IMG/VR virus record: IMGVR_UViG_2526164689_000027
Span: 1-16,182 of that record
Length of the DNA stretch: 16,182 nucleotides
Origin: a virus
Lineage: Duplodnaviria > Heunggongvirae > Uroviricota > Caudoviricetes
Reading direction: 5' to 3' (one strand)
Shown: piece by piece, positions 400 through 11,434 of the stretch
Numbering within the stretch: position 1 is the first letter of the stretch
Layout: each line of letters begins with the position of its first letter
Notes under the pieces: generated by a model
Seen by the model: the letters and a program-made list of their open reading frames with translations, nothing else
Database searches by the model: none
Told to the model about the DNA's origin: nothing
Program-made: the position numbers and the translations under genes

Positions 400-782
400 C
401 GAATTTCTCCCGTGTACAGGAACAGAGTTAAAAAGCCGGAACCGGAATCAAATTACAGGATGGCCATCTGCCAGTGGCTGGTCGTAAAAAAAGGCCACGC
501 CATGCGCAGCCGGAAATAAAGGGATAACGATGATAGTTTGAGAAAAACAGAAACGACACTTTTGTGGCAAAGCATGGTGCCGGGTGCCTCCCGGTGAGTT
601 CAGCCCGGTGCCACTAAACCCTCGTCATTCTCGTTTTGATAATCAGAGATTATACCGTCACCAGTCGCCCCTCCGCTCAGGGGGATTCACCATGCAGTTT
701 TTTTCTAACAAATTCTCATCCGGGCAGACAACATTCAACTGACTTAATTGTGAGGTATGTAACATTCCTGTTGAACGGATAC

Positions 783-1102: not shown

Positions 1103-1771
1103 TTACTGTGAAAATGCCGCCTTTTGTTTTAAACGTGTTATCGTCACGAACAATAAAGCCTCATTATCCAGCCGGTGAAAAATGTGTTTCATTGCAACCC
1201 AGTGGCCAGTAAATGTTTTGGACCAGTTTTTGGTTGTCACTCCCGCCAGTAATGCCAGCTCCTGGTATTCATAACCTTCCCCACCAAAAAGTTCTGCTTT
1301 TACTGCCTGCGCCGCCAGCCAGATTAATTTTTTCAGGCGTTCCTGCGTTTTCCCTGCAATTTTTCTGGTACCAGATTGAGTATTAAATTCATTCCACGCC
1401 CACTGTGTTATCGCGATCTGATATTCCCAACAAATGCTCTCGCTGTAACACCACAACAACCAGGCTTTATGATGTTCTTCAAGAGACAGAACAGCCCGCC
1501 GCCACGATGATGTCGAAAACTCAACCGGACTGACCAGAGGAATTGATGTCCCCTTCGCCAGCGATTGCTTTCCCGGGATTGGTGGATTATCCCGCGTTAT
1601 CATTTTTCCGGTCACCTCATCTCTGTACCGGATTTTTTTTCTCCTGTAACGCCCTGTATCGAACATGGCATTCTCCTGCCAGGCTTCAAGCTGACCTTTT
1701 GTTGCCTCACTCAAATCAGCGGTGGCGATAATGAGCTGCTCACGCACAAACTGTAAATACTGGTTATTCAT
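1103..1771 (-). CDS. Late-gene antitermination protein Q-like (222 aa)
   Basis: ATG at 1771 overlaps the rusA stop (ATGA) with GGAG SD; the track start at 1777 is a GTG. Position directly after RusA/DUF968 and directly before a promoter-terminator pair is the canonical Q position. Family assignment is from recollection of prophage Q proteins of this size, not from a computed alignment. Confidence 0.5.
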   Translation of the reverse strand: MNNQYLQFVREQLIIATADLSEATKGQLEAWQENAMFDTGRYRRKKIRYRDEVTGKMITRDNPPIPGKQSLAKGTSIPLVSPVEFSTSSWRRAVLSLEEHHKAWLLWCYSESICWEYQIAITQWAWNEFNTQSGTRKIAGKTQERLKKLIWLAAQAVKAELFGGEGYEYQELALLAGVTTKNWSKTFTGHWVAMKHIFHRLDNEALLFVTITRLKQKAAFSQ

Positions 1772-4748: not shown

Positions 4749-4904
4749 TTACTCCTCAGGTTCGTAAGCTGTGAAGACAGCGACCTCCGTCTGGCCGGTT
4801 CGGATTCGTACCTCGCAGAGGTCTTTCCTCGTTACCAGTGCCGTCACTATGACGGTTAAACAGATGACAATCAGGGCGATTAACATCGCCTTTTGCTGCT
4901 TCAT
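4749..4904 (-). CDS. hokD: Hok/Gef-family type I membrane toxin (HokD/RelF-like, 51 aa)
   Basis: MKQQKAMLIALIVICLTVIVTALVTRKDLCEVRIRTGQTEVAVFTAYEPEE matches the Hok/Gef family across its full length (transmembrane helix then conserved CEVR..GQTEVAVFTAYE). ATG at 4904; the track ORF extends in frame to an upstream ATG at 4961. Confidence 0.85.
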   Translation of the reverse strand: MKQQKAMLIALIVICLTVIVTALVTRKDLCEVRIRTGQTEVAVFTAYEPEE

Positions 4905-5175
4905 AGCCTGCTTCTCCTTGCCTTTCGGCACGTAAGAGGCTAACCTACATGTGCAAAGCATGAAATTGGCCTCAGATTAATGTTAAGCGTCCTGCAAGAC
5001 GCGTAATGTTAACTGGGGCTTTTCTCTGTCTGCCTTACGGCGGCATGCCCGAGGCAGACAGCCTCAAGCACCCGCAGCAATTCTACTTAACTCTTCTTTC
5101 CCCGCAAATCATTTTATCCCCGATGGTAATGTTCTCCCGATATGGGAATTCCCATATCAAGGTTAACTCAATCGG

Positions 5176-5727
5176 TTAAAGCTCCATTAATTTTCCGGCC
5201 AGTTCATCTCGTGGCATTACCAGCCATCCGCGCGATTTAAGCAAAGCCAGGGCTTCTTCAACCGTCACCAGCTGGCCAGGCGCATAACTTCGGATGAAGG
5301 CGGTTTTATCGTCACGGATCGCCAGGTGAAAATCGATATTCATTTTTCCCATAGCCCGCTCTTTCTCGTACTGGTTGAAGTAACTGTCTTCGAGTTTTTC
5401 GAATACTTCCCACGCCTGATCGGTTTCGAGCATTTTTGCATGACGGGCTGCTCCGCGTTCTGTCCAGAGGATGAGAGTGCGGGTTTTGGGAGAAATTTTC
5501 ACCTCATTTTGCGACTCGTTTAAAACTAGTCGCAAATTTTTGAGCTCATCACCAACAGCTTTAAAGAAGTGTTTTCCCTCAATAAATCGAGATTTATTTT
5601 CATGGTGATTCTGCTGTATACGGATTGCTTCTGTTCCGTAAAGGCGGGCGAGTAACTCAGTTGTGATTACAGGAATCTGGTTATAAGTGACAGGGGAAAG
5701 GTTTTTGACAGTAACTTGAGTCGTCAT
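5176..5727 (-). CDS. ORF6N-domain protein (phage antirepressor-like, 183 aa)
   Basis: ATG at 5727 with GAGGG SD. N-terminus ITTELLARLYGTEAIRIQQNHHENKSRFIEGKHFFKAVGDEL fits the ORF6N/KilA-N-like consensus (from recollection). Confidence 0.5.
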   Translation of the reverse strand: MTTQVTVKNLSPVTYNQIPVITTELLARLYGTEAIRIQQNHHENKSRFIEGKHFFKAVGDELKNLRLVLNESQNEVKISPKTRTLILWTERGAARHAKMLETDQAWEVFEKLEDSYFNQYEKERAMGKMNIDFHLAIRDDKTAFIRSYAPGQLVTVEEALALLKSRGWLVMPRDELAGKLMEL

Positions 5728-5891
5728 GATAACGCCCTCTGGTTGATGAATTTAACTATCACCACCTTCAGGTCTCAATCATCAGGTGGCGAGACGTACA
5801 GGGTTGAGACTACCGGATCAACCAACCGGCCAGCCTTTCGGCTGCCCCATACGCCTCACCATAATTCAGATGTGCGTGCGCATACGACAAT

Positions 5892-5913
5892 AAAAAACAC
5901 GCTCGCGGCGTGT
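5892..5913 (-). terminator. Rho-independent terminator in the nin-type region (tR2-like position)
   Basis: On the minus strand: stem ACACGC / GCGTGT with 5-nt loop CGCGA, followed by 6 U (complement of A5892-A5897). Confidence 0.45.
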
Positions 5914-5998
5914 GTCTGTCGCGGTTGAATATCCGGGGTCTCAATCCCGACGGTCAACTCGACCGTGCGGTGAATATAGCCCCGGATTAGTAATTACG

Positions 5999-6082
5999 TC
6001 AACCCCAGCGGCAAATCGAATAAACCACCAGCGCTACCGCCATTGCAACTCCTGCCGTTACGAATGCCTCAGGCCAGGTCAT
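5999..6082 (-). CDS. Possible 27-aa hydrophobic peptide (MTWPEAFVTAGVAMAVALVVYSICRWG)
   Basis: ATG overlaps the stop of the upstream small gene (ATGA, 6082-6079). The peptide is one predicted transmembrane helix. Below the size cutoff of the ORF track; no dedicated SD. Confidence 0.2.
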   Translation of the reverse strand: MTWPEAFVTAGVAMAVALVVYSICRWG

Positions 6083-6264
6083 CGTAAACTATCCTCAGCG
6101 CCAATCAGTCCGTTTCGCTTCAGGCAGTCCATCGCTTTATACGGTAATTTGGCTGACAGGCGAAAATCACCCTGCAGCATCAGGCTTATTCCCTTATCCC
6201 GGGCTTTCGCTCTGACCGCTGCCTCGCTACGACCAATCAGACTGCCGATACTTTCGACAGTCAT
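6079..6264 (-). CDS. Small putative DNA-binding protein (61 aa, NinH-like position)
   Basis: ATG at 6264; start is uncertain because the track ORF begins upstream at a non-ATG codon. MTVESIGSLIGRSEAAVRAKARDKGISL looks like a helix-turn-helix. Confidence 0.35.
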   Translation of the reverse strand: MTVESIGSLIGRSEAAVRAKARDKGISLMLQGDFRLSAKLPYKAMDCLKRNGLIGAEDSLR

Positions 6265-6323
6265 CGTTCCCGCGCACTGCCGGAGTATCAGAATTTCAGC
6301 CCGGCACCACGTCTTCCACCCAC

Positions 6324-7085
6324 TCACCGCTGCTGTTCTCTGGTGGCGGTAATATCCCGGAGAATATCCCGGCACTTGTTCAGCTCCCGCAGCGCGGCGC
6401 AGACTCGCTCCCACTTCTGAACCTGACCTTTTGCCCGGCGCAGCTCGCGGTTAGCCACATGCAGCGATGGTAAAATCAGCCCATCCGGATGCTTTCTGGT
6501 GAACGACGGCTGTGACTGCACTGTGACCGCCACACTTTCCGTTTTTATTTCTTCCTGTGTTTCCGCTTCCCGGACTGGTAACGCAACACATGCTGGCTGA
6601 GGAAAGGCTTTACCATCGGTTTCCGCTACGGATGCAGCTTCCGGCTCTGCCGGTAAATCAGCGCCCGGTATGCAGTAACGAAATTTACCGTTCTGATTTA
6701 CGCGTGCCAGGCGCCCCGTTGCTGTTACGACCGCCAACGTGGAAGCAACCTTGCGAATGCTAACACCGAACTTATCCGCCAGTTCCTCACACGTTTTAGC
6801 CCCATCCTGACAGATAAACTCAATCATCATGTCCGCGGTAACTTTTTGTTCGACCTCCCCGGTCAGCACATCCGGTACTTCAGACTGTGCTGGCTGTTCT
6901 TCGGTTACCCCGGATTCACCTTCGACAGCCAGAAACCAGGTGTGACCCGTTTTATCAACAACGCCATTTTTTTTGAGTTCCCACAGTTCGTTGAGAACTT
7001 CTTCACGGCTGATATCAAGCCGCGCCGCCAGTTCAACAGAATTGGCTTTACCCATCGCTTTCAGTGCATGCAATACGGTTCCCAT
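6324..7085 (-). CDS. Tandem winged-helix protein (254 aa), function unknown
   Basis: ATG at 7085 with GGAGG SD 9 nt upstream. Two repeated wHTH-like segments, [44 protein letters not shown] and [43 protein letters not shown], plus a charged C-terminal helix. Confidence 0.5.
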
Positions 7086-9424: not shown

Positions 9425-9832
9425 ATGAACGAGAAAACTTTAGGTCAACGCATTAGAGAAAGACGTAAGCAGGTAGGCTTAAGTCAAAACGGTTTAAGCA
9501 AAGCTGCTGGCGTATCTGGCTCATCAATTTCATTATGGGAAAGTGACCATACAGCCCCGCGCGGGCAAAATTTGCATCGCCTCGCCGAGGTATTGCAATG
9601 TTCACCAACCTGGATACTGTTTGGCGACGAGGACAAAACACCAGCTCCCCCTGTTTCACTCGATAGTACCCTAGACTTATCGGAAGATGAGTTAGAGATG
9701 CTGCGTTTGTATCGCGCACTTCCTAAATCAGAGCAACAAGCACAACTCAGCGAACTCCGCGCCCGCGTTGAGAATTTTAATCGCCTGTTCACCGAGCTAT
9801 TAGAGGCTCGCAAACGCAACAAGCATCAATAA
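9425..9832 (+). CDS. dicA: DicA-like prophage repressor (XRE HTH, 135 aa)
   Basis: N-terminal HTH QRIRERRKQVGLSQNGLSKAAGVSGSSISLWESDH, then LQCSPTWILFGDEDK and C-terminus ELRARVENFNRLFTELLEARKRN, closely matching my recollection of E. coli DicA, which is also 135 aa. Confidence 0.8.
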   Translation: MNEKTLGQRIRERRKQVGLSQNGLSKAAGVSGSSISLWESDHTAPRGQNLHRLAEVLQCSPTWILFGDEDKTPAPPVSLDSTLDLSEDELEMLRLYRALPKSEQQAQLSELRARVENFNRLFTELLEARKRNKHQ

Positions 9833-11376: not shown

Positions 11377-11434
11377 TTCTGGTGACATTTGGCGGTATCA
11401 GTTTTACTCCGTGACTGCTCTGCCGCCCTTTTTT
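11377..11434 (+). ncRNA. dicF: DicF small regulatory RNA (Hfq-dependent sRNA targeting ftsZ and other mRNAs)
   Basis: TTCTGGTGACATTTGGCGGTATCAGTTTTACTCCGTGACTGCTCTGCCGCCCTTTTTT matches my recollection of E. coli DicF almost base for base, including the terminator hairpin GGCGG (11391-11395) / CCGCC (11423-11427) and U-tract. Lies just upstream of dicB as in Qin. The 5' end is approximate (RNase-processed in K-12). Confidence 0.7.

Follow-up and report, generated by a model that had tools for sequence, protein, structure and literature searches.

A probable IsrK–c4-type antisense-RNA module upstream of an ORF6N antirepressor-like gene in a Qin/DicF-type prophage of Escherichia coli

The gap upstream of the ORF6N gene in this prophage raises a simple question: what are the short repeated motifs that it carries for? 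The window (the whole stretch of 16,182 nucleotides that was analyzed) has an identical counterpart in E. coli O26:H11 str. 11368, where it forms a Qin/DicF-type prophage, as well as in approximately 125 other genomes. A sequence search matched it at eight places in the O26:H11 record. The prophage is defective, and the RefSeq annotation of E. coli O26:H11 has no feature between a truncated DNA-binding gene and the ORF6N gene. A first-pass annotation described the gap as a regulatory, non-coding spacer without a convincing ORF and proposed three roles for its motif copies: an antitermination site of the Q or N type at a regulated terminator, a binding array for the ORF6N protein, or a promoter for the ORF6N unit. 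An antisense RNA was not among these readings. The regulatory and non-coding character of the gap is borne out by our analysis, once the DNA is read on the minus strand, and the only ORFs in it overlie structured RNAs (Table 1). None of the three roles fits the motif copies. They are instead where a c4 RNA makes its RNA–RNA contacts, one copy being its recognition segment and the other two its targets. We conclude that the interval is very probably an IsrK–c4 antisense-RNA module of the P1/P7 immI type that controls the ORF6N (AnrP-like) antirepressor gene.

Table 1. Features of the gap and of the adjoining ORF6N gene (positions in the window; RNA features are predicted).
Feature	Position	Strand	Description
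Module promoter	5973-6002	minus	-35 TTGACG 6002-5997, 18-nt spacer, -10 TATATT 5978-5973
IsrK-like leader RNA	5892-5966	minus	Rfam isrK RF01394; carries sites A1 and B1
Leader hairpin 1	5966-5950	minus	
Leader hairpin 2	5949-5934	minus	loop presents A1
Site A1, AUUGAGACC	5937-5945	minus	hairpin 2 loop; complementary to c4 A'; second GGTCTCAAT copy
Site B1, UCAACC	5923-5928	minus	complementary to c4 hairpin 2 loop
Intrinsic terminator of leader	5892-5913	minus	stem ACACGC/GCGUGU, then U-run
c4 antisense RNA	5782-5866	minus	Rfam C4 RF01695
Recognition segment B', UUGGUUGAU	5817-5825	minus	hairpin 2 loop
Recognition segment A', AGUCUCAA	5804-5811	minus	single-stranded; the inverted copy TTGAGACT
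Site A2, AUUGAGACC	5771-5779	minus	first GGTCTCAAT copy; hairpin loop
Site B2, AUCAACCA	5747-5740	minus	directly abuts Shine-Dalgarno GAGGG 5739-5735
ORF6N gene, 183 aa	5176-5727	minus	ATG 5727-5725; Pfam ORF6N 73.4 bits
Gap ORF, 44 aa, TTG start	5810-5944	minus	overlaps structured RNA
Gap ORF, 70 aa, TTG start	5716-5928	plus	overlaps structured RNA

An Rfam scan returned two adjacent matches on the minus strand of the gap, isrK and C4, both above their curated cut-offs. The C4 model (RF01695) was matched over its full length (1-87) and scored 69.4 bits, for a curated cut-off of 45 (E = 5e-12). The c4 RNA has a 17-bp closing stem that encloses hairpin 1 (CAGCC-GAAA-GGCUG), hairpin 2 (GCCGG-loop-CCGGU) and a single-stranded segment. 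The architecture of the model is reproduced exactly by both its centroid fold and its minimum-free-energy fold, and the latter is predicted at -44.4 kcal/mol (z = -5.1), with no shuffled sequence equally stable. Both recognition segments, A' and B', are unpaired in the predicted fold and are thus displayed in the hairpin 2 loop (B') and the single-stranded segment (A').

The model for isrK, an Hfq-binding RNA (RF01394), was also matched over its full length, at 5966-5892, and its 51.2 bits just exceed the curated cut-off of 50 (E = 1e-8). A third model, c4-a1b1 (RF03163), scored 27.1 bits (E = 1e-4) at 5979-5930, which is below its cut-off of 46.7 and leaves the window's leader outside the family, compared to scores of 41-51 bits at other loci. 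The small margin of the isrK match and the sub-threshold score for c4-a1b1 are both due to the shorter leader hairpin 1 of the window. In its position and in its hairpin 2 with the site that it bears, the leader is equivalent to the c4-a1b1 motif. As a whole, the leader RNA corresponds to the P1 target region a1/b1 with a terminator added. A variant leader like the window's is also found in phage VT2phi_272 (53.0 bits for isrK).

The leader has its own promoter and intrinsic terminator, both conserved, and the transcripts that they delimit are predicted from sequence. The promoter is of the sigma-70 type (10 of 12 matches in the promoter scan), and its -35 TTG and the A and T of the -10 element are invariant in the 15 aligned loci described below. 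Thus, a conserved promoter for the ORF6N unit does exist, as had been suggested, but it lies outside the coordinates of the first-pass annotation. We place the transcription start, by homology, at A5966 because position 1 of the Rfam isrK model coincides with the mapped +1 of Gifsy-1 IsrK; the coincidence follows from the numbering of the Gifsy-1 study (A107UG, G28, G31, C159, and C162), which fits the model exactly. The terminator scan recovered the minus-strand terminator that had been noted earlier, with a stem from 5913 to 5897 followed by a T-run to approximately 5892, and both the stem and a T6 tract are invariant in the 15-locus alignment. The motifs GACGGTC (5949-5955) and GACCGTG (5961-5967) had also been correctly located, and together they form leader hairpin 1. 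A larger CCGGGG/CCCCGG dyad reported around them is present, but its right arm is at 5980-5985 and not at 5970-5975. This arm is in the untranscribed spacer of the promoter and, therefore, the large dyad is not a transcribed RNA structure. The proposal of a regulated terminator is partly upheld too, insofar as homology with Gifsy-1 IsrK predicts a leaky terminator. By contrast, no boxA (CGCTCTTA-like, up to one mismatch) was found at 5700-6010, and the combination of boxA and boxB hairpin that defines a lambda-type nut site is lacking. Nothing points to antitermination of the Q or N type.

The motif copies fall precisely on the pairing sites of these RNAs. Both copies of GGTCTCAAT (5771-5779 and 5937-5945) are exact, and the inverted copy TTGAGACT is located at 5804-5811, as first described. 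A repeat search extended the direct repeat around GGTCTCAAT to 10 nt (GGTCTCAATC) and placed the TTGAGACT copy within a 10-nt inverted repeat (90% complementary) that has its partner at 5938-5947. The same search identified B' as an 8-nt perfect inverted repeat with 5740-5747, so that the A and B pairs were both recovered without prior knowledge of the module. On the minus strand, A' (5810-5804) is complementary to A1 (5944-5938) in the leader and to A2 (5778-5772) downstream of c4. A2 is presented by a hairpin (5792-5784 with 5767-5759) whose stems have four compensatory pairs. Similarly, B' (5824-5817) is complementary to B2 (5747-5740) and, over 6 nt, to B1 (5928-5923); its duplex with 5748-5733 has a predicted energy of -17.4 kcal/mol. 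This second triplet (B1, B', and B2) is absent from the first-pass annotation. A motif search across the window returned six matches with up to one mismatch against 3.65 expected, which is not significant. Hence, it is only the comparative covariation, and not a plain count of the 9-mer, that rejects a chance repeat.

For this comparison, we aligned the window with 14 further loci from annotated phages (15 loci in total), which included Stx phages, PhiR12_1, the P1-like RCS47, Gifsy-1, and phages of Actinobacillus, Yersinia and Citrobacter. In each of the 14 further loci an IsrK-like element lies upstream of c4, and the layout is constant: isrK, approximately 25 nt, C4, approximately 55 nt, and then the first codon of a gene that is either an antirepressor gene or icd-like. 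The sequences of the sites vary widely among the loci, yet a change in one A copy is always matched in the other two, giving pairs such as TTGAGAC/GTCTCAA, TTTGCAC/GTGCAAA, TTCGAAC/GTTCGAA, TTGGCGT/ACGCCAA, TTAGGAC/GTCCTAA and TTGGAAC/GTTCCAA. Thus, the comparison with related phages that had been recommended as a check shows the three motif copies covarying in every homologous locus examined. Across the 15 loci, A1 is paired with A' in 98% of the cells and A' with A2 in 100%. In each case five of the seven pairs are compensatory and none of 500 shuffles reached the score, compared to 19-50% paired in slid controls for site A.

The covariation extends well beyond the annotated phages. When IMG/VR was scanned with a pattern for the core of c4, 120 unique modules were identified, and in 90 of them the 7-mer exactly complementary to A' occurs on both sides of c4 (0 in 200 permutations). 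The remaining modules (approximately 30) lack one or both exact site-A complements and are probably a mixture of spurious pattern matches and real modules with mismatched pairs. We counted 13 distinct site-A codes and 47 site-B loops. Because loop lengths differ in the alignment, site B was assessed by permutation on the longest complementary stretch. In the 90 modules (47 loops), the downstream complement of the c4 loop averaged 8.2 nt (4.6 in controls) and overlaps or abuts the Shine-Dalgarno sequence, and the upstream complement averaged 7.0 nt (5.0 in permuted controls). The A and B codes reassort; for example, the B loop of the window was found with three different A codes. Furthermore, the module adjoins unrelated downstream genes (icd-like, ORF6N, and BRO) and occurs in unrelated types of phages.

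The gene downstream of the window's module encodes an ORF6N protein that shares 51% identity with STM2616 of Gifsy-1 from end to end. STM2616 is located where the antirepressor-like AnrP has been placed, between isrK and isrJ (PMC4825925). A protein of PhiR12_1 that is annotated as an antirepressor likewise shares 54% identity with the ORF6N protein across the first 158 residues. These similarities point to an AnrP-like gene with a putative antirepressor product. A 135-aa HTH protein encoded at 9425-9832 is one candidate for what this product would act on. Its ATG is 54 nt from the end of the c4 match, with no icd-like ORF and, according to the terminator scan, no intrinsic terminator in between. 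The B2 site is adjacent to the Shine-Dalgarno sequence without overlapping it, unlike in most other specificity classes, where the c4 loop pairs with the Shine-Dalgarno GGAG itself. The downstream target thus lies in the ribosome-binding region of the leading gene, as is expected of a C4 element.

These features closely resemble the immI region of phages P1 and P7, whose c4 entries in Rfam are RF01695 and RF03163 (clan CL00128). As described by Citron and Schuster in 1990, the c4 RNA of immI is reportedly cut from its transcript and blocks translation of the antirepressor operon, with polarity as a consequence. In the P1 operon, icd lies between c4 and ant and is translationally coupled to ant. 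The P1 mechanism has been summarized in secondary sources (PMC8198154; PMC12197685). The immI region and the window have the same RNA fold and the same arrangement of two recognition segments, with one pair of sites upstream and one downstream in the same transcript. In each, the downstream pair lies where ribosomes would load on the leading gene of the operon, which in the window encodes a putative antirepressor. In both, the sequences of the sites may act as the immunity specificity. The P1-like RCS47 even shares site A (UUGAGAC) with the window, although the B loop of the window differs from that of the P1-type system (UUGGUUGAU and UUCCCUUUGACG, respectively). The two systems are also distinct in several respects: in the window the antirepressor-like gene comes immediately after c4, without icd; this gene is of the ORF6N/AnrP type rather than Ant1/2; the module is carried after the replication genes of a chromosomal lambdoid prophage; and a C1-type operator was not identified in the window. 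The gap of 54 nt without icd makes the window a lambdoid (Gifsy-1-like) variant of the module and not the P1 operon itself.

The module is colinear with the IsrK–orf45–anrP region of Gifsy-1: in both, a promoter is followed by a leader sRNA and its terminator, then by a c4-type element and a gene of the AnrP type. The differences are in site A (UUGAGAC in the window and UUGGCGU in Gifsy-1), in the B loop (UUGGUUGAU and UCGGUGAU, respectively), in the shorter leader hairpin 1 and closed orf45 frame of the window, and in the location of the module, which is after the replication genes and before hokD in the window but after the Q gene in Gifsy-1. More distant parallels are the CI RNA of P4 (seqA/seqC) and the CA RNA of N15 (antC), which are small processed RNAs that recognize repeated short sites flanking their own gene within one transcript and similarly keep lytic or anti-immunity genes off (PMC3632133). 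The sar RNA of P22 likewise blocks translation of the antirepressor gene ant (PMC12197685). However, sar is a true cis-antisense RNA from the opposite strand, without a processed trans-type RNA or duplicated targets, and is unrelated to the window's c4 in sequence and structure. The element is already known and the window does not contain a new kind of system. Barquist et al. (2013) described an "IsrK–C4 immunity system" that P4, P1, P7 and N15 have in common and that also occurs in lambdoid prophages (PMC3632133), IsrK was characterized in 2016 (Hershko-Shalev et al.; PMC4825925), and a 2025 review treats IsrK and c4 separately (PMC12197685). Both RNAs are annotated in some phage records and in a study of APSE phages.

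With the parts of the module, their order, their predicted folds and their complementarity established, its functional steps can be modeled on those of the homologues. Transcription would start near 5966 and most transcripts would end at the terminator, yielding an IsrK-like RNA of approximately 75 nt. Read-through transcripts would contain c4, to be excised as a stable RNA of approximately 77-85 nt. The 5' end of P1 c4 is cut by RNase P. By binding A2 and B2, c4 would block the entry of ribosomes so that the antirepressor is not made in the quiescent prophage, with Rho-dependent polarity as a probable consequence of c4 binding. The leader, which bears both sites, may serve as a target mimic, pairing in cis with the c4 portion of the precursor. 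In trans, it could titrate c4 and derepress the gene, in agreement with the 139-fold rise in anrP translation that IsrK causes in Gifsy-1. The sequences of the sites would constitute a heteroimmunity code, with a specificity that varies from phage to phage.

Experimental data for Gifsy-1 are available to evaluate this model. The IsrK sRNA ends at the leader terminator, which lets part of the transcription through, and the long transcript is made without translation of anrP (280 versus 4 units; PMC4825925). IsrK supplied in trans raises anrP translation 139-fold and a transcriptional fusion 8-fold (PMC4825925). Furthermore, single mutations at G28, G31, C159 and C162 lift anrP translation from 4 to 93-926 units (PMC4825925). 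Our comparison maps these mutations exactly on the c4 recognition sites, with G28 and G31 in A1 and C159 and C162 in the c4 segment A'. Double mutants with compensatory changes in A1 and A' stay derepressed (224 and 327 units versus 4; PMC4825925), as expected if c4 must still match an unchanged A2. The A1 mutations derepress in cis rather than tightening repression, which indicates that the leader is not a pure decoy. IsrK and STnc1160, an RNA of approximately 80 nt processed from orf45, are both highly expressed in Salmonella lysogens (PMC4825925). Taken with our mapping, the Gifsy-1 data would fit c4 as the repressor and the leader as its target mimic. The authors' own model is a structural switch in cis with translational coupling via orf45 and without a processed antisense RNA (PMC4825925), and a term search of their text found no mention of P1 or immI.

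The CI RNA of P4 and the CA RNA of N15 act by premature transcription termination. It is conceivable, but unlikely, that c4 also works mainly in this manner rather than by blocking translation. The structural similarity by which Barquist et al. group P4, N15, P1 and P7 (PMC3632133) is consistent with such a mechanism, as is the 8-fold effect of IsrK in trans on the transcriptional fusion. Yet this effect is much smaller than the 139-fold effect on translation (PMC4825925), B2 abuts the Shine-Dalgarno sequence that the loop itself pairs with in most specificity classes, and no intrinsic terminator separates c4 from the ATG. Termination is probably a secondary, Rho-dependent consequence and not an alternative mechanism.

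It is improbable as well that the module operates as the cis switch published for Gifsy-1, its closest characterized homologue, in which pairing between the leader and orf45 locks the mRNA, the leader sRNA opens it in trans and ribosomes from the upstream ORF reinitiate at the start codon of the antirepressor gene, with no processed repressor RNA (PMC4825925). The full-length minimum-free-energy fold of the window does pair the leader sites with c4 in cis, as described for Gifsy-1 (PMC4825925), and a 13-codon ORF with a GUG start (5765-5724) ends in a UGA that overlaps the ORF6N ATG. However, this ATGA overlap is missing in PhiR12_1, YYZ-2008 and phi296, so we rejected the short ORF as a coding feature. 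Furthermore, orf45 has 45 intact codons in Gifsy-1, where its stop overlaps the anrP start and its translation is required, but the equivalent frame in the window is closed after 14 codons (ATG 5862-5860 to TGA 5820-5818), with the stop inside the c4 loop. Translational coupling as in Gifsy-1 is thus impossible in the window. A cis switch also leaves unexplained the covariation of A2 and B2 with the c4 segments and the stable processed RNA of approximately 80 nt, and it is at odds with the failure of the double compensatory mutants to restore repression.

Least of all do the motif copies behave as DNA sites for the ORF6N protein or a prophage repressor, or as a nut/qut site: short repeats near a promoter and a terminator, next to a gene for a protein with a DNA-binding type of fold, could suggest it, but 13 different codes matched in all three copies, their location in RNA loops of Rfam-modeled structures, the lack of a boxA-like sequence, and the occurrence of the module beside unrelated genes in unrelated phages make it very nearly untenable. 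For example, PhiR12_1 carries the motif TTTGCAC, different from the window's, despite having a related ORF6N protein. Across phages it is the complementarity that is conserved and not the sequence, the opposite of what a fixed protein site would require, and the copies are therefore not a protein-binding array.

Identification of the IsrK–c4 module assigns two regulatory RNAs recognizable by Rfam to a gap without annotated features and would explain how the antirepressor-like gene is silenced. A more speculative and less likely extension is that the terminated leader is a dedicated mimic that titrates c4, that the ratio of termination to read-through at 5913-5892 sets the switch, and that the combinatorial code links the prophages of EHEC in an RNA cross-immunity network. 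As the A/B code is combinatorial and freely reassorting, a defective Qin-type prophage could cross-regulate co-resident phages that share its code. If true, such a cross-immunity network could influence the induction of Stx phages.

Site A2, a downstream target of the c4 antisense RNA, lies in the loop of a hairpin that pairs CGCCACCU, the 3′ strand of the stem closing c4, with the downstream AGGUGGUG. Because the 3′ strand of the closing stem is used in both structures, the A2 hairpin competes with the c4 stem. Compensatory changes occur at four of the eight hairpin pairs in the comparison loci F039, RCS47 (a P1-like phage) and YYZ-2008. The alternative pairing may constitute a folding or processing switch. 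Upstream, a perfect 8-nt inverted repeat (ATCCGGGG/CCCCGGAT) links the IsrK-like leader, at its hairpin 2, with the promoter spacer. Among the aligned loci, CCGGGGCTATATT is kept in most lambdoid homologues.

The peptide specified by an unannotated ORF of 27 codons is hydrophobic (MTWPEAFVTAGVAMAVALVVYSICRWG) and had no match in a Pfam search. The ATG of this ORF overlaps the stop of an upstream ORF (6414..6079) as ATGA, and its TGA (6001-5999) shares bases with the -35 hexamer of the module promoter. At the start of the ORF6N gene, a GUG-initiated 13-codon ORF ends in a UGA that shares bases with the gene's ATG (AUGA), an arrangement that could support translational coupling. The AUGA overlap is absent from several homologues (PhiR12_1, YYZ-2008 and phi296).

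Three further RNAs in the window (STnc100, sok and DicF) all scored above the Rfam cut-offs. In the Stx phage Stx2a_WGPS6, an sRNA-Xcc1 match lies directly upstream of a second antirepressor gene. The APSE phage paper likewise associates sRNA-Xcc1 with ORF6N genes.

In Gifsy-1, the 'orf45' of the IsrK paper (PMC4825925) coincides with an Rfam C4 match. The key mutations in that paper (G28, G31, C159 and C162) map onto the c4-type recognition sites, and term searches of its text turned up neither phage P1 nor immI nor RNase P.

In some phage contigs from IMG/VR, two or three c4 modules are arrayed in tandem. Each module has its own A and B codes (the sequences of the A and B sites), and a small icd-like gene comes after it. 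The two modules of contig L090 have a common A code (ACGCC) and different B loops, and an ORF6N-type gene follows each.

Locations of RNAs, repeats, small ORFs and c4 modules in the window and at other loci
Feature	Location	Strand	Details
STnc100	window 536-724	minus	Rfam, 133.7 bits
sok antitoxin RNA	window 4899-5073	minus	Rfam; adjoins hokD (4749-4961; Pfam HOK_GEF)
13-codon ORF	window 5724-5765	minus	
A2 hairpin	window 5759-5792	minus	
Inverted repeat	window 5931-5938 and 5980-5987		
27-codon ORF	window 5999-6082	minus	
DicF	window 11377-11428	plus	Rfam, 77 bits; upstream of dicB
sRNA-Xcc1 match	Stx2a_WGPS6 (L006) 1654-1737		73.5 bits
orf45/C4 match	Gifsy-1 (L015) 34316..34131	minus	69.0 bits
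c4 modules, three copies	contig L055		spacing 656 nt
c4 modules, two copies	contig L034		spacing 659 nt
c4 modules, two	contig L090, 4098 and 7357
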